In this document: positions 11,046-49,708 of the stretch, piece after piece
Layout: each line of letters opens with the position of its first letter
How positions within the stretch are numbered: the first letter of the stretch is position 1
Origin: Escherichia coli
GTDB taxonomy: Bacteria; Pseudomonadota; Gammaproteobacteria; Enterobacterales; Enterobacteriaceae
Assembly: GCF_024700885.2 (NCBI RefSeq)
Contig: NZ_CP117016.1
Length of the DNA: 64,000 nt
Direction: 5' to 3' (one strand)
The notes under the pieces: model-generated
Database searches by the model: none
What the model saw: the letters and a program-made list of their open reading frames with translations, nothing else
What the model was told of the DNA's origin: nothing
Program-made: the position numbers and the translations under genes

Positions 11046-11358
11046 ATGTCTTTAGATTCGCTGGCCTGCGGGCATGACAATGTCAAACAGTCAAAGATTG
11101 TGGCGTTGACGGTCAGTCTGGGTCGTAAAAACTTCCTGTTCTTCGGCTCTGACCATGGTGGTGAGCGGGGAGCGCTACTGTACAGCCTGATCGGGACGTG
11201 CAAACTGAATGACGTGGATCCAGAAAGCTACCTTCGCCATGTGCTTGGCGTCATAGCAGACTGGCCGGTCAACCGGGTCAGCGAACTGCTTCCGTGGCGT
11301 ATAGCACTGCCAGCTGAATAACACATCCCCGTCAATACGGCCCTCGCTGTACGCTTAC
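11046..11358 (+). mobile_element. IS66-family 3' remnant (TnpC C-terminus plus terminal repeat ending ...GTACGCTTAC)
   Basis: GRKNFLFFGSDHGGERGALLYSLIGTCKLNDVDPESYL; the same end sequence recurs at the other IS66 copies. Confidence 0.65.
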
Positions 11359-19676: not shown

Positions 19677-21249
<1,573 letters not shown>

Positions 21250-21702: not shown

Positions 21703-22046
21703 TCCCATTACCATCAGGGACAAAGATCTGGCTGGTCGCTGGCATCACCGATATGAGAAACGGCTTCAACGGCCTGGCGGCAAAGGTGCAGACGACGCTG
21801 AAAGACGATCCGATGTCAGGTCACGTTTTTATCTTCCGTGGGCGTAATGGCAGTCAGGTAAAGCTCCTCTGGTCTACCGGCGATGGACTGTGTCTGCTGA
21901 CCAAACGGCTGGAGCGCGGCCGCTTCGCCTGGCCGTCAGCCCGGGATGGCAAAGTGTTCCTCACACCGGCACAGCTGGCGATGCTGCTGGAAGGTATCGA
22001 CTGGCGGCAGCCTAAAAGACTACTTACGTCCCTGACTATGTTGTAA
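21699..22046 (+). CDS. IS66 OrfB (TnpB)
   Basis: 115 aa; overlaps orfA by 4 bp as is typical. Confidence 0.7.
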   Translation: MIPLPSGTKIWLVAGITDMRNGFNGLAAKVQTTLKDDPMSGHVFIFRGRNGSQVKLLWSTGDGLCLLTKRLERGRFAWPSARDGKVFLTPAQLAMLLEGIDWRQPKRLLTSLTML

Positions 22047-22094
22047 GCCTCTTTATCCTGGTCGACGCTGAATGAGCCTGGTAATATACCCGGT

Positions 22095-23519: not shown

Positions 23520-24896
23520 AGAACCTGAAACAGTCAGACTGTATCTTGGATTTTACAAACTCTTATTCGGGGATTTTAGCCCCATGACGATTTACGCAGT
23601 GAGCTGGCCTCTTTCTACGTGCAGGTATTAGCGCATTCTGGCTTCCCTGAATTCTTTTTCGAGGATCACTCATTCCGTGTCTGACTGCTTCAGGGTTTAA
23701 TTTTGCTTCTGCTGACTGAATGATGATTGGGCAGCAAGTGCAATATCCCACATAAATCCAGTCAACTCACGAGCCACCGCCGTAATGGCTACTTGTGATT
23801 TTTTCCCTTTTGCTGTCAGAGTTCGGTAACGAGAACACAATCGTTGTTGAGCTTTCCATGCAATATCTTTGGAATATTGTGTTACAGAGTCCGGTCGGTA
23901 ATATATAAGCCATGCACCAACTTTTGCAGGTGTACGATAAGACCAGGCGGCTTCGTAAAGCAGACGTCTCAGTTCGCTGTTTCCAACTTTTGTTATTCCT
24001 CTGGGACGAATACTGTTTCCACTGGAATATTCACCTGGCACCAGTCCCAGAAAAGCCATGAGCTGTTTGGGATTGGAAAATCGCGAAAAATCACCCAGTT
24101 CAGCAACCAGGGTTATTGCAATTAGCTGACCAACACCTTTTAGAGCCTGCAACTGGCAGACCAGATTGCACAGAGACCACTCAGGTAACAGGCGAGATAT
24201 TTCCTGGTCGAGTTGAAGTATGCGATCTTCAATCTGCTCCAGACTTTGACAATAGTGTTGAAAAGCAATCTGCTGAGATGGCTGACTAAATGATTGATTA
24301 GCTAACCAGGTTCGATGTTTGCCGGTCCAGTGCTTCCCTGCATAACGTTTGTCTGTTCGCAATAGCATGCTCAGAATTCGCTGTCGGGCAACTCTGCTGT
24401 CTCGTTTAGCTGCTGCACGGGCTCTGATTAGATCCCGCATAGCTTCATGAGTCAGGTCAGGGATCCAGACAGGGGTAAGTTCACCAGCCCGCAGTAACCT
24501 GGCAAGAGAAATTGCGTCCCGATGATCATTTTTGATTCTGTCTGTCGGTGATTTTGGTATCCGGGAAGGGGCAATAACCTGGAATTTTATATTCATCGCT
24601 GTGAGTTGATGATATAGCCCAAAACCACAGGGGCCAGCCTCATAGCAGGAAAGAATGTTTCCGTAAAGTCCCTGCAATTTCTGAAATAATCGACGTACAG
24701 CCTGGGCTTCGTTGTTAATCGTACCATAATAACGAACTTCGCCAAGCCGTTCAGGTGCAGCAATAGCAACCGCCAACGTTTCTTTATGTACATCCAGCCC
24801 GATGTAAGCTGCAATATTTTCCGAATGCATAATGACCTCCTCTGGAATATCCCACCAATGCTATAGTGAGTATATAAAGGTCATACCATCTACCTG
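23445..24896 (-). mobile_element. IS110-family element (~1.45 kb) inserted in IS66 tnpC
   Basis: Boundaries inferred from where IS66 tnpC homology breaks and resumes; carries the 377-aa transposase. Confidence 0.65.
23697..24830 (-). CDS. IS110-family transposase
   Basis: 377 aa; N-terminal YIGLDVHK (DEDD-type) and C-terminal LKGVG.LIAITLVAELGDFSRF motif. Confidence 0.75.
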   Translation of the reverse strand: MHSENIAAYIGLDVHKETLAVAIAAPERLGEVRYYGTINNEAQAVRRLFQKLQGLYGNILSCYEAGPCGFGLYHQLTAMNIKFQVIAPSRIPKSPTDRIKNDHRDAISLARLLRAGELTPVWIPDLTHEAMRDLIRARAAAKRDSRVARQRILSMLLRTDKRYAGKHWTGKHRTWLANQSFSQPSQQIAFQHYCQSLEQIEDRILQLDQEISRLLPEWSLCNLVCQLQALKGVGQLIAITLVAELGDFSRFSNPKQLMAFLGLVPGEYSSGNSIRPRGITKVGNSELRRLLYEAAWSYRTPAKVGAWLIYYRPDSVTQYSKDIAWKAQQRLCSRYRTLTAKGKKSQVAITAVARELTGFMWDIALAAQSSFSQQKQN

Positions 24897-25124
24897 TTCT
24901 TCGGTTCGGATCATGGAGGAGAGCGGGGAGCGCTGCTGTACAGCCTGATCGGGACGTGCAAACTGAACGGAGTGGAGCCAGAAAGCTACCTCCGCTATGT
25001 CCTTGACGTCATAGCCGACTGGCCGATAAACCGGGTCGGCGAACTGCTCCCCTGGCGCGTAGCACTGCCGACTGAATAACACATCCCCGTCAATACGGTT
25101 CTTGCTGCACGCTTACAGTTCGTA

Positions 25125-32377: not shown

Positions 32378-33298
32378 TTATTCGTTTAAGGTTAAAAATT
32401 CATTAAATTGTTCAATACTCGGATAAGATGATTGCGTACCTTTCCCTGTGACGCTGAAAGCGGCAAAGAGAGCGGCTTTTTTCAAAGCGGCTTCAACATC
32501 ACCGCTTTGAACATAATAATGGGAAAAGCAACCAATAAATGCGTCACCAGCGCCACTAGTATCAACAGCATTTACTTTGAATGCAGGAACATGGACTTCC
32601 TGATCGCGGGTCATCCATAATGCGCCTTTTTCGCTCATGGTAACAATAATATTGTTCAGCCCTTTATCAACTAACGAACGTGCGGCCAAACGAATATGAT
32701 CATAAGTATCAACCGACATACCGGTTAATATTTCCAGTTCTGTTTCATTCGGGATAAAGAAATCACATTTGCAGGCATAAGACATATCTAACTCACGCAA
32801 TGCCGGAGCCGGATTTAATAACACTTCAATACCATTTATCTTACCAAACTCAATCGCGTGGTAAACTGTTTCCAGTTGAACTTCCAGTTGTAAAACGATC
32901 AATTTGCATTTTTTCAGATCTTCTGCAGCTCGATCGATATCTTCCGGGGAAAGAAATTTATTCGCTCCCTTAATTATTAATATACTATTGCTCGAGTTGG
33001 CATTAACAAAGATCGGTGCAACACCACTGCTGGTACAGGGGACCTTCTCAACATAAGTGGTATTAATTCCCCATGATTCAAGATTACGAATAGTATTATC
33101 CGCAAAAATATCATCACCTACTTTAGTCAGCATCAGGACTTTTGAATTCAATTTAGCCGCCGCCACCGCTTGATTAGCACCTTTCCCACCACATCCGATT
33201 TTGAAGGCAGGTGCTTCCAGAGTTTCTCCTTCTTTAGGCATCTGATTAGTGTAAGTAATGAGATCCACCATATTGGAACCAATAACTGCAATGTCCAT
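32378..33298 (-). CDS. deoK: Deoxyribokinase (ribokinase/PfkB family)
   Basis: PfkB signatures (GGKGANQA, DTSGAGDAF); start at MDIAVIG with SD agagg. Confidence 0.75.
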   Translation of the reverse strand: MDIAVIGSNMVDLITYTNQMPKEGETLEAPAFKIGCGGKGANQAVAAAKLNSKVLMLTKVGDDIFADNTIRNLESWGINTTYVEKVPCTSSGVAPIFVNANSSNSILIIKGANKFLSPEDIDRAAEDLKKCKLIVLQLEVQLETVYHAIEFGKINGIEVLLNPAPALRELDMSYACKCDFFIPNETELEILTGMSVDTYDHIRLAARSLVDKGLNNIIVTMSEKGALWMTRDQEVHVPAFKVNAVDTSGAGDAFIGCFSHYYVQSGDVEAALKKAALFAAFSVTGKGTQSSYPSIEQFNEFLTLNE

Positions 33299-33603
33299 TT
33301 CACTACCTCTTATAAACTTTCGCATAACAATGGTATTTAAATAACATTAGCATGTTACTTTTGCATCATTTGTGACTGAGATCGCGATTAGCACATCAAC
33401 CCGATGTTTATTTAATAGACTTCCAGTCTCATCACTCAGGCCAACACTATCTAATCATAAGCAACCTAACAAGATTAGTGCCCAAAACTCAGCAGCCTAT
33501 ACCCTTTTCATTTCAAAGGGTCGGTCGTATAGTATGGTAATGAAAACAATGTTTACTAACGCCAAAATGTTATTTTTATAACATTCTTACGGAGAGAGAG
33601 TTG

Positions 33604-34386
33604 ATGGAAACGAAGCAAAAAGAGCGTATCCGACGTTTGATGGAACTGCTTAAGAAAACTGACAGAATCCATTTGAAAGACGCAGCGCGAATGCTGGAAG
33701 TTTCTGTAATGACTATTCGTCGCGATCTCCATCAGGAAGATGAACCTCTGCCACTGACCCTACTGGGTGGCTATATTGTAATGGTGAATAAACCCGCGCC
33801 ATCCATGCCAGTAATCCATGACGTTCCAAAAAATCATCGTGATGACTTACCTATTGCAATTCTGGCTGCCGGAATGGTTAATGAAAATGATCTGATCTTC
33901 TTTGATAATGGCCAGGAGATACCACTCGTTATAAGCATGATCCCGGATGCAATCACCTTCACCGGCATCTGTTACTCACATCGCGTCTTTGTTGCGTTGA
34001 ATGAAAAGCCTAATGTAACAGCAATACTTTGTGGTGGTACGTATCGTGCCAGAAGTGATGCTTTTTACGATGCCAGTAACTCTTCGCCATTAGACTCTCT
34101 CAATCCGCGAAAAATATTTATTTCCGCCAGCGGTGTGCATAATCACTTTGGCGTCAGCTGGTTTAACCCTGAAGATCTTGCCACTAAGCGTAAAGCGATG
34201 AACCGTGGACTACGGAAAATTTTGCTCGCCCGCCACGCGTTGTTCGATGAAGTGGCCTCTGCCAGCCTTGCACCGATCTCTGCATTTGACGTTCTGATTA
34301 GCGATCGTCCGTTACCGGCAGATTATGTTACGCACTGCCAGAATGGTTCTGTAAAGATCATTACACCTGATTCAGAAGACGAATGA
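33604..34386 (+). CDS. deoQ: DeoR-family repressor
   Basis: N-terminal HTH and C-terminal sugar-phosphate-binding domain; divergent from deoK. Confidence 0.7.
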   Translation: METKQKERIRRLMELLKKTDRIHLKDAARMLEVSVMTIRRDLHQEDEPLPLTLLGGYIVMVNKPAPSMPVIHDVPKNHRDDLPIAILAAGMVNENDLIFFDNGQEIPLVISMIPDAITFTGICYSHRVFVALNEKPNVTAILCGGTYRARSDAFYDASNSSPLDSLNPRKIFISASGVHNHFGVSWFNPEDLATKRKAMNRGLRKILLARHALFDEVASASLAPISAFDVLISDRPLPADYVTHCQNGSVKIITPDSEDE

Positions 34387-35431
34387 CTTACTGAAAAAAC
34401 ACCACAATCTTGTTAAACATCGTCGGATTGGACTGATTACGTTGCACTTTCACCACATATTCCAGCTTATCTATTTGGCTTATCACCTACTCCAGACGCT
34501 GGTCATCCTTGACCAGTAGCCAGATATGGCTTTTGTCGCAGTCCTGAATCGGCAGGCAGAGAATGTCTTCAACGTTAAGAGCGCGACGGGCAAAAGCCCA
34601 CAAAGGTGAGTCATTACACCCGGATGGTAAACAGGCACTTCCTTGTTGTAGAAGCCGTTATATTGCCCATAATGTCTGGGTTTTTAATGCATACTGGGTA
34701 ACAACCGGACGAATCTTCGAATATCACTGGCGCTGCCAGCCGGTTTGAATTCATCTCACAACCCTGCATAGAGCGAATCTCCTGCCTGCACGTCACTCCA
34801 CTCCATGGTATCAACTTCACACTCTTTATCTGCGGCTAGCTTCAGCCACCAGATAAGCATCGACTATGAAAGATGAGCCATGACAACATAACGTTGGTAA
34901 CGCTCTGACGCCTTAATGGAAGATGCCTGCCACCATAGGGAATGTAAACGACTGAAGTGTGGCCTTTAATGCCGTGAACGGCTCATGGTCTCCTGGCACG
35001 GTTGCCGCCCCAACCTGTAACAACATTCCACAGTACAATGTCTGCCAGAGTCAGAGCCTCCCATGCTTGTTGTAGTAACTCTACCAGTTACGAACATCCT
35101 TCCTCAAAATTGTTGTCATATCTCGCATGGAAGAAAAGATCCTGGCTAAGGAGCAACACACAACGTATTGCGGAACTTGCATATTTTTCCTGTAACTAGT
35201 GTATTACCACATATGGTAATAGCTACCTGTGTGGTTTCGCTGGATAGCAAGGGGATTTATTCGCAAGTAAAATGCCTGATAAAATACACGAATCTAGTAA
35301 TCATCAATATTTACTCTGGTCGAATGACGCGTGAAAGTGGACGGCCAACAGACGCAGTCAGTGATCTACAGCCTGTTGAATAAAACCCCGGATGCTTCCC
35401 CCGATTCTGCAAGTAATACTTCGGTTATTTG

Positions 35432-35537
35432 CACTATTTTATCCCTGTTGAATTTGGTTAAGCCGGTGCAGACGCGCCGGGAAACGCACACCTGAACCGG
35501 CACAATAAAATACAATACAACCCCCTGTTACTGGAGA
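35432..35537 (+). repeat. 106-bp exact repeat (second copy at 49603-49708)
   Basis: Identical strings cactattttatccctgttgaatttggttaagccggtgcag...ccccctgttactggaga at both places. Confidence 0.8.
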
Positions 35538-35837
35538 AATGCCTGCGCCGGGGTCCGATATGGCAGTATTGTTGCAGCCTGCGGCATGGCTCAGGGGATG
35601 GATTTGATGGGCAATATGGCTCCGTTTATTCTGCGTGGTGTCACGCTGAAAGGGATTGATAGCGTCATGTTCGCGAAAGAGAAAAGAGCAGCAATCTGGC
35701 AACAGGCGGTATAGTATTTGCCAGAGTCCAGAATGGATAGTCTCACTACCGTTTATCCGCTCAGTGACGCCATCACTGTGGCTGAAAAACTTCTGAGTGG
35801 CGGAATTCGCGGTCGTGCAGTCATTCAATATAGCTAA
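35523..35837 (+). pseudogene. YhdH/AcuI-like quinone oxidoreductase, C-terminal remnant with frameshift
   Basis: ...PFILRGVTLKGIDSVM... then, in another frame, ...AEKLLSGGIRGRAVIQYS*. Confidence 0.5.
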
Positions 35838-35894
35838 TTAGATGGATGCCGAGCTCAGGCTTAGTATAATAAGTTTTAGGGGCTGCGGCCCCTT

Positions 35895-36551
35895 TTACTG
35901 GCCAGTTGTTGCTTCCTGAGAAGACTGATAGCGTACCGAGGTTTTGAAATAGCTCCAGAAGTCGTACACTGGCTCAGTAGAACAATATAGTTTGGAACGC
36001 ATTACCGCACCTTCCCAGCCACTCCAGAAAATAGCCGCCAGTTGTGTATTATTCATATTTGAACTTATTTCGCCTGAAGATAACGCGTCGGACAGGCAGG
36101 CCGCAACAAGTGCCTGCCAGCTCTCAAGAATATTCTGTAGTACTTTAATGAAGGATTGGGGAAGCCCCGGACTCTCCTGCATCATATTTCCAACCAGGCA
36201 GCCGCGGGTAAAATTGTATTTTTTAATCCCCTCACAGGCATCATTGATGAAATTTTCCAGACGTACCATTGGTGTGCAGGATGATTCATGTAGATGTTTT
36301 TTGAGTTTATGCTCGAAGAAACTGTCATAGGCGTTCAGAACGGTCTGAGCATAATCCTCTTTACTCTTAAAGTAGTAATAAAATGAGCCTTTAGGGACAT
36401 TGGCATTTTTAACAATGGCATCGACTCCCGTCGCAAGAAAACCATTCTGCGTCAGCAGTTCAAGGCCACTGCGGATCAGATCATTACGAGTATCTGCATA
36501 GGTACTTTCTGTCTTTCGCGGCCTTCCCCGGCCACGATTTTCGCCTGTCAT
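35895..36551 (-). CDS. TetR/AcrR-family transcriptional regulator
   Basis: HTH (LIRSGLELLTQNGFLATGVDAIVKNANVPKGSFYYYF); start at MTGENRG with SD aggag. Confidence 0.75.
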   Translation of the reverse strand: MTGENRGRGRPRKTESTYADTRNDLIRSGLELLTQNGFLATGVDAIVKNANVPKGSFYYYFKSKEDYAQTVLNAYDSFFEHKLKKHLHESSCTPMVRLENFINDACEGIKKYNFTRGCLVGNMMQESPGLPQSFIKVLQNILESWQALVAACLSDALSSGEISSNMNNTQLAAIFWSGWEGAVMRSKLYCSTEPVYDFWSYFKTSVRYQSSQEATTGQ

Positions 36552-36798
36552 GACCCATCTCCTACATTTTATTAACGCAAAAGAATAAGTGATTTTGCGC
36601 GAGAGCTTCAATCAGTTTATCCCCGCAGTGGCAAAGTGTTCGCTTTTGCCGACTGGACAGTGGCAGTGCCTGTCGCTACTGCGCCATCGCTGAACAGTGC
36701 AGAATTAGCAACGTTTGCTTTTGGCACAAAGCATACGCCCATTCTCACGCGAATGCTTTGCCCTTGACTTGCCAACAACCGAATCGCTTGCTCTGCAG

Positions 36799-38076
36799 CT
36801 ATGTTTTTTTATTAGAATATTCGCCACTAAATAAATTATAATAAGTTGATTTTATTAGATATCTATCAGAATCTATATGGTCAGCACGAGTTGCATGCTC
36901 TAATGTTTCAAATGCCAGGGTATGTGCGGCTTCAGCAAATATCCCTGGCCAACCTTTACTCAGCATCGACAGTCCTTTAAGGACTCTTATCTGAATCTCC
37001 CTCATACTGGCACCATCGCGCGCGACAGGTGAGAAAAAGTCTTCCAGTAGATCGTTATTCTGAAGTGGTGCAACATGTACTGAAGGATATTTCACTTCTA
37101 TTTCATCAGATTTATTCTGCGCGTAAGTGGAAAGTATACGAACACCTCTGCCAATGACATCAATGGCGGTTCCAGGATCGTTCACTGCAGGGGAAAGGGC
37201 CCGGCAGGCTATTTCGGCCATGACGCTAAGACAAAATCGAGGATCCTGAGCAAATGAACGTGCATCCGAGACAATAATCGTCTCAAGTAAATCGGTGCTG
37301 ATTGACGACTCCTGGCCCTGACTCAGGTACAAAACTGGCATGGACGGATGTATGAAACTGCCTGGCTGCGCCACGAGGTATACATGACGGGGATCATTGG
37401 TCAGCAGCTTGCTAAGTTTCACCATATCAATATATTCAACATAGCCAATCTTCTTCGGATAAACTGCAACCGTTCCTTTCGGCTGTTCATTGTTCTCAAG
37501 CCATGGATATCCGCCGAGACAGGGATTTCTTGCTCTCGCAATAAATGTTTCGATGGCCGCCTGTTCTACTTGTGCCGTTGTCTCACCAACCCTCCCCAGA
37601 GAGGTCAAATGCTGTATCCAGCGAAGCAATGTGATGAGGATTAAGGCAATGACAACCAGTGTGACAATGAATAAAATGACTCTCCCCCTTTCTCCATAAG
37701 CTCCCATATTGAGGGCAATAATCCCTACCAGACTGAAGAGAAAAGAACCGATGAAGGTGGCCAGTACATTTTGTGTGGTGACGTCTTCAACAACTAAACG
37801 CGTAGCTCTGGGAGTCACATTAGTAGTGGCTGAACCGTAGGCTGTGACCATGATACTCAGCGAAAATGTGGTCACTGCCAGCATACTCGATGCCAGTATG
37901 TTCAGAATGTTATCGACTGCTTCCGCACCAACCTTCACGGAAACCGACTCAGGTATCATTGATTTAAAAAGAATTGATAAAAGGGCCGTTATTATCGCGA
38001 CAATTGCGAATAACGTTGCCCTGAACCATAGTTTTTTAATTGTCTGCTTCAGCATCCATTTCCAGCGTGAAATCAT
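36799..38076 (-). CDS. DUF2254-family membrane protein
   Basis: Multi-TM N-terminal half plus soluble domain; start ambiguous (38091 or 38076). Confidence 0.55.
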   Translation of the reverse strand: MISRWKWMLKQTIKKLWFRATLFAIVAIITALLSILFKSMIPESVSVKVGAEAVDNILNILASSMLAVTTFSLSIMVTAYGSATTNVTPRATRLVVEDVTTQNVLATFIGSFLFSLVGIIALNMGAYGERGRVILFIVTLVVIALILITLLRWIQHLTSLGRVGETTAQVEQAAIETFIARARNPCLGGYPWLENNEQPKGTVAVYPKKIGYVEYIDMVKLSKLLTNDPRHVYLVAQPGSFIHPSMPVLYLSQGQESSISTDLLETIIVSDARSFAQDPRFCLSVMAEIACRALSPAVNDPGTAIDVIGRGVRILSTYAQNKSDEIEVKYPSVHVAPLQNNDLLEDFFSPVARDGASMREIQIRVLKGLSMLSKGWPGIFAEAAHTLAFETLEHATRADHIDSDRYLIKSTYYNLFSGEYSNKKT

Positions 38077-38138
38077 TCTGCATTCCCTCATATTGCGGCC
38101 GGGATAATAATTGCCGCCCCCAGGACGGCATGTTGCTA

Positions 38139-40142
38139 TTAACGAACCAGGTGCAGGAAGTGCAGATGTTTTTCGTACTGGTCCAGTATGTCATTAATCA
38201 GCTGTTCCTGGTTCCAGCCCATCACATCATAATTTTGACCGCCTTCTTTGAGATAAACCTCAGCGCGATAATATCGATGTTGTTCAGTCTGCTGCTCATC
38301 ATTATCCATTGCGGCGAGCGCGAAGGTCGGTGAGATATACCCGCGAAGCCTCACTTCATATATAAAATTCAGCTCGTTGCCCAAATCGACTTCAAGACGA
38401 ATACGATCGTCGACTGCATCACTAATGTGGCTTATCGTCCCCTGCTTGTTCAGTTCCTCCTGAACCAGCGTCATGGCGGGCTGGATAACGTCGTCCATAA
38501 AACGTTTCACAAGAGATCGCTTCGGCAGATACGCGATATTGCGTAACCTTCTCTGCCAAGGAATTGGGTTACGTGCAGCCGTAGGAGCAATTGTCGCCAT
38601 GCTCAGGCTTTCACGCTTGGTCAAATCCCGGCGCAAAGCTTTTAAAAGTCCGTATATAGATATTAGTAAGATCACTGAGAAGGGCAATGCACTCGCTATT
38701 GTCACCGTTTGCAGCGCACTTAGCCCTCCGGCAAGGAGAAGCGCAATTGCAACAATGCCCATGAGCGAGGCCCAGAATATTCGCTGCCAGACGGGTGTGT
38801 TTGCCACTCCACCTGATGCCAGAGTATCCACAACCATTGCCCCCGAATCAGCAGACGTTACAAAGAAGACGATGACCATCGCCATTGCAATGAATGACAG
38901 CACAGAAGAGAACGGGAAATGCTCCAGGAAATTAAACAGGGCCAGCGCCACATCCTGCTGAACAGTATTGGCGAGGTCTGTGGCCCCCTGGTTCATAATG
39001 AGATAGATCGCGCTGTTACCAAACACCGTCATCCACATTAGCGTAAAACCCGCGGGAACAAACAGCACGCCGGTGACAAACTCGCGAATGGTTCGCCCGC
39101 GGGAGACTCGTGCGATGAACATCCCCACAAACGGCGACCATGAAAGCCACCATCCCCAGTACAGTAATGTCCAGCCCCCCAGCCAGTTGCTCGACTTGGG
39201 CTCATACGCGTAAAGGTTGAACGTTTTACTCACCAGTTCCGAAAGATAACCGCCCGTATTTTCCACAAATGACTTCAGCAGAAGCACGGTTGGTCCCAGA
39301 CACAGGACCAGCGCCAGGAGCAACAAAGCCAGACCCAGATTGAGTTCAGACAGGATACGTATTCCCTTATCCAGACCGGACACCACTGAAATCGTCGCTA
39401 ACCCCGTGATGACCACGATCAGAATTACCTGCACCGTTTCATTGATGGGCACCCCGAAAAGATGGTTCAAACCGGCATTCACCTGCAAAACACCGTAACC
39501 CAGTGATGTCGCAACGCCAAAGACCGTGCCTATAACAGCGAAAATATCAACCGCATGTCCTACAGGTCCGTATATGCGATCGCCAATAATGGGATAGAGT
39601 GCGGAGCGCAGAGTTAAAGGCAGACCGTGACGGTAACTGAAGAACGCCAGAATCAGCGCCACAATGGCATAAATTGCCCATGCGTGCAGTCCCCAGTGGA
39701 AAAAGGTCAGACGCATTGCTTCCTTAGCTGCCGCAACGGTTTCTGGAGTGCCAACGGGTGGCGAAAGATAATGCATTACAGGTTCGGCAACGCCAAAGAA
39801 CATCAGGCCGATCCCCATCCCTGCCGAAAAAAGCATCGCAAACCAGGAGTGGTAGCTGAAATCAGGCTGCGCATGGTCCGGGCCCAGCTTGATATCACCG
39901 TAGCGTGAGAGTCCAAGGAACGTGACACTCAGTAAAATCAGGGCCACAGCAAGGATGTAGAACCAGCTGGCATTCGTGAAGATTTGTTGCTGAAGTAGTT
40001 TAAAATTTTTGTCGGCGACATCCGGGAATACGGCGGCAAAGGCGACAAGAAGGAAAATTAGCAAAGCAGATGTAAAGAATACCGCTTTGTTAATCTGACT
40101 TGTAGACTTCTTTGGGATTGTATCATTTTCACTCATAATCAT
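38139..40142 (-). CDS. BCCT-family betaine/carnitine/choline transporter
   Basis: 667 aa; BetT-like polytopic protein with long C-terminal cytoplasmic tail. Confidence 0.75.
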   Translation of the reverse strand: MIMSENDTIPKKSTSQINKAVFFTSALLIFLLVAFAAVFPDVADKNFKLLQQQIFTNASWFYILAVALILLSVTFLGLSRYGDIKLGPDHAQPDFSYHSWFAMLFSAGMGIGLMFFGVAEPVMHYLSPPVGTPETVAAAKEAMRLTFFHWGLHAWAIYAIVALILAFFSYRHGLPLTLRSALYPIIGDRIYGPVGHAVDIFAVIGTVFGVATSLGYGVLQVNAGLNHLFGVPINETVQVILIVVITGLATISVVSGLDKGIRILSELNLGLALLLLALVLCLGPTVLLLKSFVENTGGYLSELVSKTFNLYAYEPKSSNWLGGWTLLYWGWWLSWSPFVGMFIARVSRGRTIREFVTGVLFVPAGFTLMWMTVFGNSAIYLIMNQGATDLANTVQQDVALALFNFLEHFPFSSVLSFIAMAMVIVFFVTSADSGAMVVDTLASGGVANTPVWQRIFWASLMGIVAIALLLAGGLSALQTVTIASALPFSVILLISIYGLLKALRRDLTKRESLSMATIAPTAARNPIPWQRRLRNIAYLPKRSLVKRFMDDVIQPAMTLVQEELNKQGTISHISDAVDDRIRLEVDLGNELNFIYEVRLRGYISPTFALAAMDNDEQQTEQHRYYRAEVYLKEGGQNYDVMGWNQEQLINDILDQYEKHLHFLHLVR

Positions 40143-40246
40143 TTATTCCATTAATTAAATTCGCACTGGATAGAAGGTACTACCTCTCACAAAGTAGCAA
40201 AGTTCAACTGGCTATGCGGCGTTAATCGGAATGCATGGTGGAATGT

Positions 40247-41493
40247 TGAGGTGTACTGGCAATAGCGGACACTACCATTTGTTCTTTTTTTAAGCAGCCA
40301 TCTGATGATATTTTTCCCTGAAGGCTGCCGGGGAGATATTCCCCAGACGAGAGTGACGACGCTGACGATTGTAGAAAATCTCAATGTATTCCCGTATTAC
40401 TGAGATGGCTTCATCCCGGTTATTAAAACGATAGTGGCTCAGGCTCTCATTTTTCAGCGTTCCCCAGAAGCTTTCCATCGGAGCGTTGTCGTAACAGTTA
40501 CCTTTACGCGACATTGATGTTTTCAGACCAAACTGCTCCTGTATGACACGGTAATCGTATGCGCAGTACTGTGAACCTCGATCAGAGTGGTGGATTAGCC
40601 CGGCAGGTGGGCGCTGGCTCCTGAGCGCCATAAACAGGGCTTTACCTGTCAGCTCTTTTGTCATGCGCTCTCCCATGGCGTAGCCGACAATTTCGCACGT
40701 ATAAACATCTTTGATGCCAGCGAGGTACAACCATCCCTCCTGTGTGGCAACATACGTCAGGTCCGCCACCCAGACCTGATTTGGTGCTGTAGGAGCGAAC
40801 GTCTGGTTCAGCAGATTTGGCGCAACTGGCAGATTGTGGTTCGAGTTCGTAGTCGCTCTGAACTTGCGTTTCTGCTTACAGCGTAGCCTTAGCTCCTTAC
40901 GAAGACGTGCCAGTCGGTCACGACCAACGATGATGCCATTCTCTGCCAGCTCCGTCTGGAGCTGCCGGGTTCCATATGTTTCGCGAGTGCGGATATGCGC
41001 CACCTTAATCTCCAGTTTTAGCCGCTCATCACTTTGTTTTCTGTCTGAGGGTTCATGCTGTACCCAGTTGTAATAACCGCTCCTGGATACACCAAATACC
41101 TGACACATCGCTTCAATGGGAAATTGTTGTCGCCATTGTTCGATTAACGCGTATTTTTCAGCGACTCCTGTGCAATTTAATATATCTCGCTCAAGGCGAG
41201 CTTCATTTAACGCCTTACGCAGTTGCAGAATTTCAGATTCCAGTTCAGCCACCGTGCGGGAACCAGGAGTACCGAGCCCTTTTCTGGCGGCGGTAACCCA
41301 TTGTCCTAAAGTGCCTTCAGGAAGAGATAATCGGGAAGCACCTTCACTGATCGAAAGTTGATTTTCAAGAACCGTTCTGACAGCTTCGGCTTTGAACTCT
41401 TTAGAGTAACGTTGGGTTTTTCTGCTCATTATTAGCTCCTTCTGATGCCATTCTATTTCAGGAAGGAGTGTCCGTTAAACTCAGGCTACCTCA
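40247..41493 (-). mobile_element. IS3-family insertion sequence (1247 bp), imperfect terminal IRs TGAGGT...CGGACACT
   Basis: Terminal repeats at 40247-40276 and 41464-41493; internal transposase. Confidence 0.7.
40290..41429 (-). CDS. IS3-family transposase encoded as a single fused OrfAB reading frame (379 aa)
   Basis: N-terminal HTH and C-terminal DDE integrase core (ADLTYV, HHSDRGSQY, YDNAPMESFW) in one uninterrupted frame. Confidence 0.75.
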   Translation of the reverse strand: MSRKTQRYSKEFKAEAVRTVLENQLSISEGASRLSLPEGTLGQWVTAARKGLGTPGSRTVAELESEILQLRKALNEARLERDILNCTGVAEKYALIEQWRQQFPIEAMCQVFGVSRSGYYNWVQHEPSDRKQSDERLKLEIKVAHIRTRETYGTRQLQTELAENGIIVGRDRLARLRKELRLRCKQKRKFRATTNSNHNLPVAPNLLNQTFAPTAPNQVWVADLTYVATQEGWLYLAGIKDVYTCEIVGYAMGERMTKELTGKALFMALRSQRPPAGLIHHSDRGSQYCAYDYRVIQEQFGLKTSMSRKGNCYDNAPMESFWGTLKNESLSHYRFNNRDEAISVIREYIEIFYNRQRRHSRLGNISPAAFREKYHQMAA

Positions 41494-41575
41494 TTGGTTC
41501 CCACTACTTATTTGGTGGACACCACTTTGTCTAATTCGTCAGATTCTGACCAGACGGTTCAGGCTGTACGCTTAC
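41494..41575 (-). mobile_element. Orphan IS66-family terminal fragment (82 bp)
   Basis: Same 82-bp string as 49521-49602, the left end of the IS66 copy at 47315-49602, ending ...GTACGCTTAC. Confidence 0.7.
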
Positions 41576-41609
41576 AAACAACTAGTGGAAATACTTGTAC
41601 TTTATAATT

Positions 41610-42554
41610 TCAAGGGTACGGGTCCGCTTCGTTTGATTTGCGTGTTTTTAACAATTTTAAAACCCAGACATACTGTTCCGGATGTGGCCCCACCAAAATT
41701 TCCACTGTTTTGTTCATTTGTCGGGCAATCATTTTATTGTCCGCGCTGGCAATGCAAGCATCCATTGGTGGCCGAATTTCAATAGTCAGGAGATGTTTTT
41801 TTTCATCATAAACCGGGAAAAGTGGTATAATCATAGCCTGACTGATGTTCATCAGACGTCCAATGATTGGTAATGTCGCTTTATAGGTCGCAAAAAAATC
41901 AGCAAATTCACTGTATTCAGGACCATGATCCTGATCTGGGAGGTAATATCCCCAGTATCCCTGGCGTACTGACTGAATAAATGGTTTTATCCCATCCTCC
42001 CGGGCATGTAAGCGCCCCCCGAATTTACGCCGTACTGAATTCCAGACATAATCAATCACTGGATTTCGTTGCTGATGAAACATGGCGGCCATTTTTTTTC
42101 CCTGAGCTGCCAGCAACATTGCAGGAATATCCACGCTCCAGCCATGGGGAACCAGAAAAATCACATTTCTATTATTGTGTCGAATTTCCTCAAGAATTTC
42201 GAGGCCTTTCCAGAACACTCGTTTCTGGAACTTTTCCGGACCACGAATTGCCAGTTCTGCCATCATCACTATGGATTGCAATGCTGTGGCAAACATTTTG
42301 TCGACAATTATTTCCCGTTCTGTATCACTCTTTTCTGGGAAACAAAGCGATAAATTAATCGTCGCCCTGCGACGAGCTTTTTTGCTCAATCTGCCCACCC
42401 AACGCCCTATTTTTGCCAAGACAGGATCTCTGAATGAAGGGGGAAACATTGAAATACCTGCAATCATTCCCAAAAGGAACCATGTAGACCAGTAAACAGG
42501 GGAAAGGTAATTTTTCTTAAATTCAGGAATAAACTCAGATTTATATTTTTTCAT
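41610..42554 (-). CDS. Lipid A secondary acyltransferase (LpxL/LpxM family, MsbB2-like)
   Basis: 314 aa; LpxM-family call on overall similarity (acyltransferase H-box region around VPHGWS); adjacency to a virK-like gene as on Shigella virulence plasmids. Confidence 0.7.
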   Translation of the reverse strand: MKKYKSEFIPEFKKNYLSPVYWSTWFLLGMIAGISMFPPSFRDPVLAKIGRWVGRLSKKARRRATINLSLCFPEKSDTEREIIVDKMFATALQSIVMMAELAIRGPEKFQKRVFWKGLEILEEIRHNNRNVIFLVPHGWSVDIPAMLLAAQGKKMAAMFHQQRNPVIDYVWNSVRRKFGGRLHAREDGIKPFIQSVRQGYWGYYLPDQDHGPEYSEFADFFATYKATLPIIGRLMNISQAMIIPLFPVYDEKKHLLTIEIRPPMDACIASADNKMIARQMNKTVEILVGPHPEQYVWVLKLLKTRKSNEADPYP

Positions 42555-42618
42555 TATTTAGTGCGAATGCCTCTACCAAAATTATCATTACTGTTTTATT
42601 CAGAGAATACATCAAACC

Positions 42619-43233
42619 TTAATTTAAATTCTGATGTTCTGAGTGTACAGGATATGCATCCAAAGAGCGGATAGTAGTTTCATGGATATAATCCAGCAAA
42701 GCGTATCGTTTTCGGTACTCAGAGCGTTTTTTACTGGCTATATCGCTTAGCGGCTTTCGAATCACCTGGGTTGGTAATCTGTACCAGTCACCACAGGTTT
42801 TTCCTGCTACAGACTCCCAGAAATCACTATAGACCGCAACAAAGGTTTTGCGTTTCTGATACCAGTATCTCAATTGCCGGAAAACATGACTGTGCTCACT
42901 GACTGCCAGACACTCAGAGATATTGCAAGCTTTCATCAACGCACAAAATGCTTCAAAAATAATCCGTTTTGGGAAAATCCCATAACAGGCCCGGGTTGCG
43001 CACCGAATAACATCAGGTCCGGTATTTTTAGGGGCTCCCTGTAATCCGCCAATAAAAGCAATGTGTCCATTTTGAGTCAGAATGACTGAAAATGTTAACC
43101 GGGCAATAACTGTTTTATTGTAAAACAATGACAACATCAACTCTCCTTCCCGGTCAAAACCACTGGGAGAACACTGGATATCAAAATTCTCTCCATCTTT
43201 CCCGATGAATTGGACTAATGATACCGATTTTTG
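42619..43233 (-). pseudogene. VirK-like (DUF535) gene, 5'-truncated at the IS1 boundary
   Basis: C-terminal 173 aa (IGGLQG, ACYGIFPKRI, RKTFVAVYSDFW); ORF runs into the IS1 end at 43234. Confidence 0.55.
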
Positions 43234-43288
43234 GGTAATGCTGCCAACTTACTGATTTAGTGTATGATGGTGATTTTAAGGTGCTTGC

Positions 43289-43564
43289 GTGGCTTCCATT
43301 TCCATCAGATGTCCTTCCTGCTCCGCTACTGAAGGCGTGGTGCGTAACGGCAAAAGCACTGCCGGACATCAGCGCTATCTCTGCTCTCATTGCCGTAAAA
43401 CATGGCAACTACAGTTCACTTACACCGCCTCTCAGCCCGGTACGCACCAGAAAATCATTGATATGGCCATGAATGGCGTCGGATGTCGCGCCAGTGCACG
43501 CATTATGGGCGTTGGCCTCAACACGGTTTTACGTCACTTAAAAAACTCAGGTCGCAGTCGGTAA
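43289..43564 (+). CDS. insA: IS1 InsA
   Basis: [30 protein letters not shown]... Confidence 0.85.
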
Positions 43565-43986
43565 CCTCGCGCATACAACCGGGCAGTGATGTGATTGTCT
43601 GCGCTGAAATGGACGAACAGTGGGGCTACGTCGGTGCTAAATCACGTCAGCGCTGGCTGTTTTACGCGTATGACAGGATACGGAGGACGGTTGTGGCGCA
43701 CGTCTTCGGTGAACGCACTCTGGCCACACTGGAGCGTCTTCTGAGCCTGCTGTCGGCCTTTGAGGTCGTGGTATAGATGACGGATGGCTGGCCGCTGTAT
43801 GAATCACGCCTGAAGGGAAAGCTGCACGTTATCAGCAAGCGTTACACTCAGCGCATTGAGCGACATAATCTGAATCTGAGACAACATCTGGCAAGGCTGG
43901 GACGGAAGTCACTGTCGTTCTCAAAATCGGTGGAGCTGCATGACAAGGTCATCGGGCATTATCTGAACATAAAACACTATCAGTAA
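43483..43986 (+). pseudogene. insB: IS1 InsB with in-frame TAG stop at 43774-43776
   Basis: Translation reads ...[18 protein letters not shown] across the stop; canonical IS1 has W at this position as I recall it. Confidence 0.7.
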
Positions 43987-44071
43987 GTTGGAGTCATTAC
44001 CTCCTCCCGAACTCAAAGCTATCATACAGATAATTACTGGTTAACCCTATATAGGGCATTTTAAAGTGTTG

Positions 44072-44400
44072 TGATCTTACCCAGCAATAGTGGACACGCG
44101 GCTAAGTGAGTAAACTCTCAGTCAGAGGTGACTCACAAGACAAAACAGTTTCAACCAGTAAAAAAACGTAAACACCATTCGCATGAATTTCGTAGTTAAG
44201 ATCTGAAGCTTGCAGAATGCATCGGTGTTACTGCCGGAGTCCGTGAACTTAGTCTGCATGAATCACCACAGCTTTACATCTGTCGCAGTAAACAGCAAAA
44301 TCAGCAAACTTACTTAATTATATCGAGTGCGATTACAATCGCTGGCGATGGTACAGTTGGTGTGGCGGTCTCAGTCCGGAACAATTTGAAAATCAGAATC
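44072..44400 (+). mobile_element. IS3 internal-deletion relic (left IR, 5' of orfA, fused to the 3' end region)
   Basis: TGATCTTACCCAGCAATAGTGGACACGCGGCTAAGTGAG... followed by degenerate orfA 5' sequence and then orfB 3' sequence. Confidence 0.55.
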
Positions 44401-44710
44401 TCACTTAAAACGGCATCCATTTTACAAAAGATGGCCGTCTGTGTATTTATAATGAATACCTTCTACATGTTTAGAGTGCATAATCCACGACAAGGCGATA
44501 TCCTAAAAATTAGCTAGCAGGCAACTTTGATGGCATAGATAATGTTTTTAGTAAAAAAGAGTTGACTTAATATAATACAGCCTCTTCCTACATAAGAAGG
44601 AATGTGCTCACAAAAAAAAACATTAGTCTGCTTCCTGTTCTTACAATAATCAGTATTATGTATTTTATTTATATAGCAAAATATGCTTGTTACACCTGTC
44701 ATAATTAGGC

Positions 44711-45004
44711 ATGGTAAAATTATTGACTGAACCCTGGGGGAGAAAGATGCACAGTGATTATTATAATATGGTTTTTGGTGAAAAATTGGCCAATATTTTA
44801 TATGAAGCTAACTCTCAATTTTTTTACGAGAGAAATGTCATAGAAGAGGCAGTCAACGCTTTATTCTGTGAGCGTGAAATAATAAACAACAAGAACATAA
44901 TAAAGAAGCTGATGTTCTTTTTGTCAGATGTTAATCACACCAAGAAAGATGTTGTTCAGAGCGCACTTAATATTATCATTGACATTACATCAGGTGATAT
45001 TTGA
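44711..45004 (+). CDS. Hypothetical small protein (97 aa), AT-rich
   Basis: ORF only; no recognisable motif; weak support. Confidence 0.25.
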   Translation: MVKLLTEPWGRKMHSDYYNMVFGEKLANILYEANSQFFYERNVIEEAVNALFCEREIINNKNIIKKLMFFLSDVNHTKKDVVQSALNIIIDITSGDI

Positions 45005-45261
45005 GATTTTACATAAAAGATAATCTCTCAAGGAGTCTTATCTGAAAACGAAATATATAGTCCCTCTCGTTTTGTAATATCGATTGGCTTTGTTGAATCG
45101 GTTACGTACCCCGGAGCCGGTCATATTTTCAGGTAATACACACGCTTTCAGACATTTCGGCTTTCGTCATTTTGGTATCATGGGCATAGCTTCTGCTACC
45201 TGACCATCATAATCACGCAGCTTCAGTGAAGCAGTGACCACCTGTTTAACCCGGTGTATCG

Positions 45262-45486
45262 TTATGATCTTATCCAGCAATAATGGACACGCGGCTAAGT
45301 GAACCGCCCCGGGTTTCCTGGAGAGTGTTTTATCTGTGAACTCAGGCTGCCAGATCATCGTTTCCGATGGAAGCATAATAAGCTTTTTCTGCTTCTGCCG
45401 GTGGGATATGGCCCTGCCTTTCCAGCAATCGTCGATTGTTATACCAGTCCACCCACGTGAGTGTGGTCAGCTCATCATACTGACAC
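45262..45486 (-). mobile_element. IS3-family (IS629-like) 3' fragment abutting a second IS3 left-IR copy
   Basis: Minus-strand frame encodes ...WVDWYNNRRLLERQGHIPPAEAEKAYYASIGNDDLAA; end sequence TGAACCGCCCCGGGTTTCCTGGAGAG. Confidence 0.5.
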
Positions 45487-45754
45487 GTGCATTACCCCTA
45501 CCGCGATAATGCAACCGTACAATATAGGGCGTTTCCTAAACGCAGCCCTCATCACTCCAATCCAACAAGACACAGCATTTTTGATCACGAAGAAAGACAA
45601 ATAATTTCCGTAAATGTTTCCGTTGTTACAAATAACAACAGTGTTTTACATTTCTTTGGCCTCAGGCCCGCGCATGTTGCCATTCGATGTCATTTTCCTG
45701 ACTCGTTTCTTCTTTATGGTGTAGTGTGATCTTCACTTTATGGATGCTAACAAT

Positions 45755-47113
45755 ATGAAAAGAAAAATTATTCCCGTGCTAATCGGTTGTACGCTCTCTT
45801 TCTCTGCCCTGGCGGCACAACCTACGGCTGAGCGCTATGTCGTCAGTTTTCCAGAAGGCACGCACGTGAACTACGCCGGCGCATTTGCCAGTGCATTCCC
45901 GAACGGCCTTCCGGTTGGGATAGGTTCTGGCCTGCTGTTCACCGGTAAACAGGGCGATGCCCTGACATTCGCAACCATTACCGATCGCGGTCCGAACGCG
46001 GATTCACCGAAAGAGGGGAAAAACGAAACTAAAATTTTCGTTACGCCAGATTTCGCGCCGCTGCTGATGACGATTCGTGTACAAAACGGCAAAGCGGAGG
46101 CCATCGATCCCCGTCCTCTGCATGACGATAAAGGCGCGATCAACGGTCTGCCGCTGGCAAGCGACGTGATTGGCTCCACCAATGAAGTGGCCTTCAGCGA
46201 CACGTTACATAGACTGAAGGGGGATAATCGCGGGCTGGATACGGAAGGGATCACTCCGGATGGTAAAGGAGGTTACTGGCTGTGCGATGAGTATGGCCCG
46301 TTCCTGATTAACATCGACAGTAAAGGGAAAATCCTGGCAATCCACGGTCCGCAGGCGGCGGAAGAGGAAAAAGCGATTGCGGGCGGTTTGCCAAATATCC
46401 TCAAATGGCGTCAGGCGAACCGCGGCTTTGAAGGCCTCACCCGTATGCCGGACGGGCGTATTATTGTCGCCGTGCAAAGTACGCTGGATATCGACGCTAA
46501 GAGCAAGAAAAAGGCGCTGTTTACGCGTCTGGTGAGCTTCGATCCGGCAAGCGGAAAAACCGCGATGTACGGTTATCCCATCGACAGCGCGGCCTACAGC
46601 AAAAACAGCGACGCTAAAATCGGAGACATCGTGGCGCTCGATAACCAGCACATCCTGCTGATCGAACAGGGAAGAGATAAAAACAACAGAATGCGTAACC
46701 TGATTTACGAGGTCGATCTCAATAAGGCGAGCGACCTGTCAGGCTTCGACAAGCCGGGTGAGTATCCGGAGTTTGATGATGAGAAAACCCTGTCACAGCG
46801 CGGCATTACCCTTGCGCAGAAAACGCAGGTTGTTGATCTGCGCTCCTTGGGCTGGCAGCAGGAGAAGGCTGAAGGGTTGGCGCTGATCGACAGCAAAACG
46901 CTGGCGGTGGCGAACGATAACGACTTTGGCGTGAAGGTGGCGATGCAACATCCGGTCGAGGGCAAGACATTCAAGGATTATCGGGTGAACGCGGAAGGAA
47001 AGCTGACGCTTGACGACAAGCAGGTTGAAACGACCCTCAGAGTGAAGCCACTGGAGAAACCGGAGTCTGACAGTGAACTGTGGATTGTGACGCTGCCGGA
47101 AGCGTTGAAATAA
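45755..47113 (+). CDS. Secreted phytase-like esterase family protein (signal peptide)
   Basis: N-terminal signal sequence MKRKIIPVLIGCTLSFSALAA; family call is tentative. Confidence 0.55.
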   Translation: MKRKIIPVLIGCTLSFSALAAQPTAERYVVSFPEGTHVNYAGAFASAFPNGLPVGIGSGLLFTGKQGDALTFATITDRGPNADSPKEGKNETKIFVTPDFAPLLMTIRVQNGKAEAIDPRPLHDDKGAINGLPLASDVIGSTNEVAFSDTLHRLKGDNRGLDTEGITPDGKGGYWLCDEYGPFLINIDSKGKILAIHGPQAAEEEKAIAGGLPNILKWRQANRGFEGLTRMPDGRIIVAVQSTLDIDAKSKKKALFTRLVSFDPASGKTAMYGYPIDSAAYSKNSDAKIGDIVALDNQHILLIEQGRDKNNRMRNLIYEVDLNKASDLSGFDKPGEYPEFDDEKTLSQRGITLAQKTQVVDLRSLGWQQEKAEGLALIDSKTLAVANDNDFGVKVAMQHPVEGKTFKDYRVNAEGKLTLDDKQVETTLRVKPLEKPESDSELWIVTLPEALK

Positions 47114-47314
47114 GTTTATAAGGTACGGACAGCAGTATCGCTTAGTTTTTCAAATTCATGTATGTGAACAATATTGGGGTTCCGGCGTAGACCCCCAATG
47201 AAAGCGTCACCACGTGAAAACATGCCTGCACGGTTTACACGTCATCCCATGGTGGCAGCCGGTTAACTTTCCTGCGCCACCAGTGGAAAAAGGCCATAAG
47301 CAGTCCGAACAAAA

Positions 47315-49602
47315 GTAAGCGTACAGCGAGGGCCGTATTGACGGGGATGTGTTATTCAGCTGGCAGTGCTATGCGCCACGGAAGCAGTTCGCTGACCCGG
47401 TTGACCGGCCAGTCTGCTATGACGCCAGGCACATGGCGAAGGTAGCTTTCTGGATCCACGTCATTCAGTTTGCACGTCCCGATCAGGCTGTACAGTAGCG
47501 CTCCCCGCTCACCACCATGGCCAGAGCCGAAGAACAGGGTCTTCATCTTTTCACGCAACCAGCTTTCCAGGGATTTCAACAGCGGTTTCGTTTTTCGCTG
47601 ACGTTCAGCAAGCCGCTGCTCTGCCGGCATTCCCCTTATATCCGCCTCTATGGCGTACAACTGACCGATCTGCTCCAGGGCTTCTTCCGTCAGTGCTGAC
47701 GGGATGCGGACGTGCACATCGTGGATCTTTCGGCGGGCATGAGCCCAGCAGGCAGCTTCCGTTATCCCACCATTGCGATACAGCTCGTTGAACCCGGCGT
47801 ACGCATCCGCTTGCAGCACACCGCTGAAGCAAGCAAGATGAGTCTGCGGATGGATGCCTTTTCTGTCCGGGCTGTAAGCGAACCTCACTGCAGGTGCCAA
47901 CGCTGACCCGGCATTGCGGTCATCACGAACATACGCCCACAACCGCCCGGTCTTCGTCTTCTTATTACCCGGCAGCAGTACCTGGACCGGGGTATCATCG
48001 GCATGGAGTTTGCCGTCAGTCATGACATAGCCATGAAGCGCCTCTTCCAGCGGAGACAGCAGCCGGCAGCATGCATCCACCCAGCCCGACAGCAGTGAAC
48101 GGCTCAGCTCCACACCTTGCCGGCCGTATATTTCTGACTGGCAATACAGCGGGGTGTGCTCTGCATACTTCGAGGTCAGCACGCGGGCCAGCAGCCCCGG
48201 TCCGGCGATACCCCGCTCGATGGGCCGCGAAGGTGCAGGTGCCTGCACGATGGCATCGCACTGAGTACAGGCATGTTTTTCCCGTACCGTCCGGATAACC
48301 CGGAAGGCGCTACGCATCAACTCCAGCTGTTCGGCGGTATCCTCGCCCAGATAGCTCAGTGAACCGCCGCAGTTCGGGCAGCACGGCGCCGCAGGCAACA
48401 GTCGCTTTTCGTCACGGGGTAGTGATTCAGGGAACGGCTTACGGGTGCGGGTCTGACGCAACGGACGCTGTACTGCCGGGTCATACACCCTACCAGTCAG
48501 CGTATCGCTCTCTTTCTGAAGCCGGTTCAGATCGGCTTCCATTTGTGCGATACGGCGGGAGACTTTTTCGGAACGACTGCCGAAGTTCATCCGGCGGAGT
48601 TTATCCAGCTGCGCCTGCAGATGTCTATTTCGCGCTCCCGGTTGCTCAGCTTTTCCTGCAGGGCGTGGATCAGCGCTTCCTGTTCGGCCAGGCGCTGTTT
48701 CAGCAGGAAGATGTCGTCAGAAGAGATTTCGTTCATAAGCCCGTATTTTACCGGGCTTATTCTGTGACAACCAGGATAAAGAGATTTACAGCATGGTCAG
48801 GGAGGTCAGCAGCCGCTTGGGCTGTCGCCAGTCGATACCTTCCAGCAGCATCGCCAGCTGCGCCTGCGTAAGGAACACTTTGCCATCACGGGCTGACGGC
48901 CAGGCGAAGCGCCCACGCTCCAGCCGTTTGGTCAGGAGGCACAGTCCGTCACCGGTGGACCACAGCAGTTTAACCTGACTGCCGCTGCGGCCCCGGAAAA
49001 TGAAAACATGGCCGGACATGGGATCGTCTTTCAGCGCCGTCTGTACTTTCGCAGCCAGGCCGTTGAAGCCATTTCTCATATCGGTGATACCGGCAACCAG
49101 CCAAATTTTGGTCCCGGAAGGTAACGGGATCATCGCTTCAGTTCCTGTATCAGCAGAGTCAGGAGCTTTTCGCTGACATTGCCATTGAAGCGGAGCGTCC
49201 CGTGCCGGAACGTTACCTCACAGCTGATACTGAGGGTTTCCGGGTCCTCTGCGAGCGATTCTGGCTGTTCGGCAGCTGCATCGGGAGTCACAGGAAGTAG
49301 CTGGGGGCTCTCTGAAGAAGGTAATAGCAGCTTTCCCTCGCGCCATTGTTGTCGCCATTTGAACAACAGATTGGCGTTAATGCCATTTTCAAGAGCAAGT
49401 TTTGAGATGGATATCCCGGGTTCACAGGAGGCAGCAACGAGCTGCTGTTTAAATTCGGGAGGATAATTAGGGCAGCCTTTTCACCTGCCGGGAGTCACAT
49501 TTTTCTGCATATCTGACACTTTGGTTCCCACTACTTATTTGGTGGACACCACTTTGTCTAATTCGTCAGATTCTGACCAGACGGTTCAGGCTGTACGCTT
49601 AC
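47315..49602 (-). mobile_element. IS66-family element, degenerate (tnpC frameshifted with an internal deletion)
   Basis: Ends GTAAGCGTAC... and ...GTACGCTTAC; orfA 49130-49366, orfB 48786-49133, tnpC pieces 47352-48590 and ~48600-48760. Confidence 0.75.
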
Positions 49603-49708
49603 CACTATTTTATCCCTGTTGAATTTGGTTAAGCCGGTGCAGACGCGCCGGGAAACGCACACCTGAACCGGCACAATAAAATACAATACAACCCCCTGTT
49701 ACTGGAGA
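49603..49708 (+). repeat. Second copy of the 106-bp repeat, directly abutting the IS66 end
   Basis: Identical to 35432-35537. Confidence 0.8.

Follow-up and report, generated by a model that had tools for sequence, protein, structure and literature searches.

The two identical 106-bp sequences at positions 35432-35537 and 49603-49708 of the window (the whole stretch of 64,000 nucleotides analysed here) are genuine scars of rearrangement, of an ordinary kind, in a pathogenicity island of Escherichia coli that is already known and widespread. In the favored reading, to which we assign a probability of about 70%, they are two partial copies of one island edge: the repeated sequence is the stretch of backbone between the insertion point of an IS66-family element and an illegitimate join to the gene acuI. 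Today the pair acts as a substrate for unequal crossing-over, as seen in a tandem array in a single public assembly, that of strain 20AR0734.

The repeats and the island that carries them

The window covers the pathogenicity island that E. coli carries at tRNA-Leu (leuX): the core genes lptG, yjgR and ahr come first, followed by tRNA-Leu (leuX, 3419-3503) and a large island, at the end of which lies a conserved backbone encoding zinc-ribbon proteins, an inovirus-Gp2-like protein, Hha, a GTPase, Ag43 and YeeU/CbtA. Islands at leuX with Fec, VirK, MsbB2 and Ag43 have been catalogued as PAI-CE10-leuX, PAI-ED1a-leuX and PAI-S88-leuX (reviewed in PMC7545054). The window shares with them the insertion site, the cargo (lpxM/msbB2 and virK, with fec in sister genomes) and the Ag43/YeeU-CbtA backbone, but in its version fec and most of the shf-capU-virK cluster have been lost at IS1; the 106-bp repeat pair is absent from that review. 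The chromosome of E. coli MLI114 matches the window at essentially 100%. For window 33000-52000, the best match is NZ_CP117013.1, where 19,002 bases cover the 19,001-base query; the one-base indel falls between window 42554 and 47113, so that the window is not byte-identical to MLI114. Two further matches lie elsewhere in the island: a group II intron D1-D4 fragment (10306-10445, minus strand, Rfam 66 bits) among IS and integrase fragments at the tRNA-proximal end, and an IS102 sRNA match (57226-57462, plus strand, Rfam 74.6 bits) immediately upstream of the backbone gene for the autotransporter Ag43.

The initial annotation had described the 106-bp copies as identical and as marks of rearrangement breakpoints in a genomic island, and both statements are borne out. 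The copies agree at 106 of 106 positions, with 0 bases of extension on either side. A second pair, 41494-41575 and 49521-49602, agrees at 82 of 82 positions. In the whole window, each sequence has exactly two copies, all of them on the plus strand, and a repeat search returned the same two families. Exact repeats of 82 and 106 bp cannot be due to chance in 64 kb. Nothing suggests a function of the 106 bp in its own right: it has no Rfam family match, a search for a promoter-like site in it found none, its one terminator-like site is at chance level, and its folding z-scores are -0.96 and -1.74.

Junctions were counted over 5426 complete E. coli genomes, 2786 of which contain the 106 bp, in up to five places per genome. 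With L and R denoting the backbone segments that flank it on the left and right, the junction IS66/106-R occurs in 1705 genomes, L-106/acuI' in 591 and uninterrupted L-106-R in 243; the whole 19-kb arrangement is present in 340. All four junction sequences are invariant across the lineages of the window, ST131 and O104:H4. Within the repeat, an AATAC microsatellite (window 35506-35515 and 49677-49686) has two units in the window and three in copy 1 of ST131, in which copy 2 carries C70T; the O104:H4 copies differ from each other at two positions. The copies have thus diverged independently in ST131 and O104:H4, which indicates that the 100% identity in the window is lineage-specific and that the duplication is old.

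From left to right, the window reads L-106, then acuI'-acuR-DUF2254-BCCT-IS600-(82 bp)-lpxM-virK'-IS1-...-esterase-IS66, then 106-R (Table 1). The homologous block measures 20.7 kb in ST131, with fec in place of lpxM-virK, and 30.5 kb in O104:H4, with the full shf-capU-virK-lpxM cluster and fec. Inside the window's block, a 42-nt direct repeat (44068-44109 and 45261-45302, 93% identical), apparently formed by IS3-type end fragments, brackets a YmgB/AriR-family gene (44711-45004).

Table 1. Features of the window that bear on the repeat pair (positions in the window)
Feature	Position	Strand	Remarks
Isolated IS66 IRR-end fragment	11135..11358	+	99% identical (inverted) to 47315-47538
Backbone segment L	35334..35431		decayed remnant of UCP030791-family gene; joins the 106 bp directly in uninterrupted alleles (NC101, strain 361 paralogue)
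106-bp repeat, copy 1	35432..35537		left contiguous with backbone segment L; right cut by acuI' junction
Cargo block	35538..49602		14,065 bp; unit including one repeat 14,171 bp
acuI', 3' fragment of acrylyl-CoA reductase gene	35538..35714	+	starts at about profile position 228 of 325
acuR, TetR-family acrylate utilisation regulator	35895..36551	-	
DUF2254 protein gene and BCCT transporter gene	36799..40136	-	
IS600 (IS3 family)	40247..41493	-	right end from genome matches; left end inferred from inverted repeat
Orphan 82-bp left end (IRL), ISEc8-like IS66	41494..41575	-	truncated by IS600; outer edge abuts lpxM downstream region (AAACAACT...)
lpxM (msbB2) and truncated virK	41610..43233	-	fragment of plasmid-type shf-capU-virK-lpxM cluster, cut by IS1 (43289-43986)
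Phytase-like esterase gene	45755..47113	+	always left of chimeric IS66
Chimeric, internally deleted IS66-family element	47315..49602	-	2288 bp versus 2442 bp; tnpB intact
IRR-end piece of a different IS66 species	47315..47538	-	224 bp; 87% identical to ISEc8 (pETEC_74 copy), 99% to 11135-11358
106-bp repeat, copy 2	49603..49708		right contiguous with zinc-ribbon/Gp2/Hha/Ag43 backbone (R); left cut by IS66 end

Two edges of different kinds

In strain NC101, L (from the equivalent of window 35371), the 106 bp and R (TACGAATGGAATGACG..., toward the zinc-ribbon genes) form one unbroken stretch. A diverged paralogue in strain 361 likewise has L, a ~70%-identical 106 bp and the start of R (TACGAATGGAATGACGA) in contiguity. 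Together with the ~243 genomes that share the contiguous arrangement, these alleles identify L-106-R as the ancestral edge of the backbone and, on sequence comparison, the 106 bp as conserved island backbone, not IS66 DNA. Strain DFL.5 carries the same island as the window (the left 12.3 kb are 99.94% identical) with one 106-bp copy and no insert. Its right flank, at 98.4%, is more diverged than the left, and the concentration of differences around the junction and in the right flank suggests that alleles were replaced; given this divergence, DFL.5 can be read neither as a clean deletion product nor as a precursor.

Three standard sources of flanking repeats were considered and rejected. Island att direct repeats, formed by duplication of a tRNA 3' end, do not apply, as no repeat family ties the 106 bp to the tRNA-Leu at 3419-3503 and both copies are internal to the island. 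A target-site duplication made by a transposase does not fit the length (106 bp versus 8 bp for IS66) or the left inner end, which is a truncated acuI and no IS end. A composite transposon is incompatible with the presence of an IS at the right end of the block only.

At the right edge of copy 1, the neighbor was described initially as a decayed oxidoreductase gene, correctly so: it is the AcuI fragment. A second fragment of acuI, 98.7% identical, is found on the porcine ETEC plasmid pU90-5 and reads through 35538 (...CACACTCTGC/AATGCCTGCG). A composite protein from the window and pU90-5 matches positions 141-282 of the 325-position NCBIfam profile AcuI, with the break near 228. At the 35537/35538 joint there is no IS end and no microhomology relative to both parental sequences; an AATG four bases downstream in the backbone was considered as microhomology and does not fit the observed joint. 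The joint is a blunt illegitimate junction. Neither parent of the 106/acuI' join is present among the 5426 genomes, and intact acuI occurs in no E. coli record.

The surroundings of this joint have been visited by further IS elements. In O104:H4 (HUSEC2011), 1070/13 and PO06101, ISEc23 lies four bases beyond the end of the 106 bp with an 8-bp target duplication (GGAGAAAT) around it, which shows that it inserted after the 106/acuI' junction had formed. The insertion (loci L006 5200-7860, L008 and L018 4779-7490) is equivalent to window 35534-35541, and the far flank of ISEc23 has been swapped in PO06101; two IS66-family insertions within ~110 bp may point to a local hot spot. On pU90-5, the acuI fragment (L010 3740-4077) is situated between an IS3-family element and an IS66 end and is adjoined by the heat-stable enterotoxin gene stb; this separate fragment implies repeated breakage of the acuI region by IS elements.

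The left edge of copy 2 is of a different kind. As the initial annotation had placed it, copy 2 starts on the first base after the IS66 terminus at 49602, which reads ...GGCTGTACGCTTAC, the reverse complement of the IS66-family end GTAAGCGTACAGCC. The terminal inverted repeats start with GTAAGCG (GTAAGCGTACAGCGAGG at 47315 and, as reverse complement, GTAAGCGTACAGCCTGA at 49602). The element has the GTAAGCGTACAGC... inverted ends, the tnpA-tnpB-tnpC order and matches to the Pfam domains DDE_Tnp_IS66 (partial), zf-IS66 and TnpB_IS66 of the IS66 family and its ISEc8-like members (a label taken from the RefSeq annotation of close matches). It departs from them in four respects: it is 2288 bp long, not 2442 bp as the reference copy on pETEC_74, it is a two-species chimera, its DDE domain is truncated, and it lacks an 8-bp target duplication. 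Outside the IRR-end piece it is 99.3% identical to the pETEC_74 copy of ISEc8, and ~148 bp are missing at the joint between the two parts. TnpB_IS66 is complete, the annotation marks a frameshift in tnpC, and the ORF of tnpA is shortened; TnpC has the domains zf-IS66 and DDE_Tnp_IS66, of which the latter covers only profile positions 1-222 of 284, positions 223-284 being missing. The element is probably immobile on its own.

Its flanks (GAACAAAA versus CACTATTT) do not match, and no pair of matching 8-bp flanks exists among all six IS66 ends in the window. The reciprocal junction of an insertion into the backbone (L, CACTATTT and the IRR of IS66) was found in none of the 5426 genomes, and a simple intact insertion is undocumented. 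Chimerism, mismatched flanks and the absent reciprocal junction together argue that two IS66 species recombined to give this element and that its left flank has been exchanged. A phytase-like esterase gene always precedes IS66 in the 1705 genomes with the IS66/106-R junction. Farther to the left, ISEc22 (IS66 family, 21217-25116), which is interrupted by ISEc45 (IS110 family), likewise has no target duplication (CTACGGCA versus AGTTCGTA).

Of the initial proposal that the repeats are footprints of IS66 activity, one part stands: copy 2 does owe its left edge to an IS66-family insertion, and a chimeric element lacking a target duplication fits IS66-IS66 recombination. The 106-bp duplication itself was not made by IS66, given that the 106 bp is backbone and that the other breakpoint, 35537/35538, is IS-free and lies inside acuI.

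The same proposal took in the 82-bp IS66 end that recurs at 41494-41575. It does lie beside an IS3-family element, IS600, as stated, but it is no product of recombination with the copy at 47315-49602: it is the IRL left over from another, independent ISEc8-like insertion downstream of the plasmid-derived lpxM, and IS600, rather than IS66, truncated that copy. It is identical to 49521-49602 simply because both sequences are ends of one IS type. Many genomes match 41300-41493 and then stop, which places the IS600 terminus at 41493. The element has the domains rve and HTH_Tnp_1, and both of its ends begin with TGAGGT...; its flanks, TGT and TTG, show no 3-bp target duplication if the putative left end is taken as its limit. 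These unduplicated flanks suggest that an IS600-associated deletion removed the rest of the orphan's IS66 copy. The IS600/82/lpxM arrangement recurs in 483 genomes, and plasmid p89_MLI108-3 has the unoccupied site in an intact shf-capU-virK-lpxM cluster. Two further candidates were set aside: H216, as a plasmid parent of the 82/lpxM junction, is uninformative, since it has the same IS600/82/lpxM arrangement on a 23-kb non-mobilisable contig that is probably chromosomal; and the IS66 end near lpxM on pETEC_74 is at a different site and does not represent the same event. Like other solo ends that nested IS insertions and deletions leave behind, the 82-bp IRL directly abuts the IS600 terminus, and nothing is unusual here. 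The IS600 transposase of the window (40290-41429, minus strand) is one fused 379-aa ORF (HTH_Tnp_1 and rve); in other genomes, IS600 is annotated with the usual two-frame arrangement and its programmed frameshift.

How the pair may have arisen

The favored reading would start from an L-106-R backbone, i.e. the decayed gene remnant, the 106 bp and the zinc-ribbon genes onward. The downstream copy would have lost L when an ISEc8-like IS66 inserted exactly at the L/106 boundary; the other flank of that element would later have been exchanged, making it a chimera. The upstream copy would have kept L-106 and lost R through a single blunt, IS-free join that put the 106 bp onto the middle of acuI, the partner presumably being the first gene of the cargo block in an island variant that already ended in IS66-106-R. 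From then on, the two copies would be short direct repeats, between which unequal crossing-over could amplify or delete the enclosed block. Both this order of events and the origin in a single crossover are what we infer from the junctions. Against the reading, neither a parent of the 106/acuI' join nor a reciprocal IS66 junction was found in the 5426 genomes, the diverged right flank of DFL.5 blocks a clean reading of that strain, and the amplification comes from one public assembly. Furthermore, the integration of a circle or an aberrant insertion would account just as well for an insert that lies between two copies of its target.

The first of these would be a Campbell-type event: a circle (106-acuI'...IS66), for instance one looped out of an amplified array, enters an L-106-R island by homologous recombination with its only 106-bp copy. 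A Campbell product would have precisely the geometry observed, the identity between the copies in the window is 100%, circles could be released from tandem arrays, which do exist, and DFL.5 provides a near-identical island lacking the block. Such integration may account for the spread of the block; it does not account for its origin, as the circle must already carry the illegitimate 106/acuI' join. Moreover, a circle or a plasmid-borne or relocated unit is unseen, and IS66/106/acuI' occurs in one of the 5426 genomes, only in the tandem array. As an explanation of the pair, we consider it unlikely. A stronger version, in which the 106-bp repeats define a translocatable unit (acuI'...fec/lpxM...IS66) that leaves as a circle and re-enters related 106-bp-bearing islands in a RecA-dependent manner, is decidedly improbable. 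If true, the unit would, with no recombinase of its own, spread iron-uptake and lipid-A-modifying genes among tRNA islands, and the fec copy number would be tunable under selection.

Aberrant or one-ended transposition of IS66 would have inserted the IRL end at 49602 and, with it, adjacent donor DNA as far back as the interior of acuI, producing a 106-bp staggered target duplication. It would explain why the insert stops precisely at an IS66 terminus on one side and at an arbitrary place within a gene on the other, with the target doubled on both sides. However, IS66-family insertions here give 8-bp duplications, as seen for ISEc23, and the element is chimeric with a truncated DDE domain. The IS66/106-R junction is also ~3x more widespread than 106/acuI' and is found in genomes that lack the latter, so that the two junctions need not share one event. 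To our knowledge, there is no precedent for a 106-bp duplication made by a DDE transposase. We regard this mechanism as very improbable. An assembly artefact, which the initial annotation had named as the way in which its reading might fail, or a chance repeat is effectively excluded: beyond the fact that repeats in general are classic misassembly sites nothing supports it, and independent complete genomes of various lineages and laboratories share the junctions (340 to 1705 genomes each), with lineage-specific differences between the copies.

Unequal crossing-over between the copies

Tandem gene amplification and deletion can proceed via unequal crossing-over between short direct repeats, the usual substrates being IS, rrn or REP copies. 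The junction predicted for such an event at the 106-bp pair, which joins the IS66 end, the repeat and acuI', was built and searched in the 5426 genomes. The single hit is strain 20AR0734 (urine, New Zealand), where it lies inside a tandem array: at 4261739-4324016 of NZ_CP187211.1, three 20.7-kb units, each acuI'-acuR-BCCT-IS600-fec-esterase-IS66 and 99.99% identical to one another, follow in tandem. They are delimited by four repeats at 4324016, 4303292, 4282567 and 4261844, spaced by 20,724, 20,725 and 20,723 bp. The two outermost repeats are an ordinary copy 1 and an ordinary copy 2. Each of the inner two lies between IS66 (left) and acuI' (right) and comprises 111 bp with copy-1 markers (C70 and three AATAC units), which places the crossover within the first 69 bp of the repeat. 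The system shares with other cases of tandem amplification or deletion the block flanked by direct repeats and the array with hybrid repeats at its internal joints; it differs from the usual ones in its substrate, which is only 106-111 bp of non-IS backbone.

The main practical value of these observations lies in annotation and assembly. The pair marks the border between variable cargo and conserved backbone in an island that is very common in E. coli, it accounts for the different sizes of the block (14, 21 and 30 kb), and it is a spot where short-read assemblies can collapse or misjoin. In the clinical urinary isolate 20AR0734, the pair can drive the triplication of a 20.7-kb segment with the ferric-citrate uptake operon; this strain is a small, concrete case of copy-number variation at a fitness locus. 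None of the observations requires new biology.
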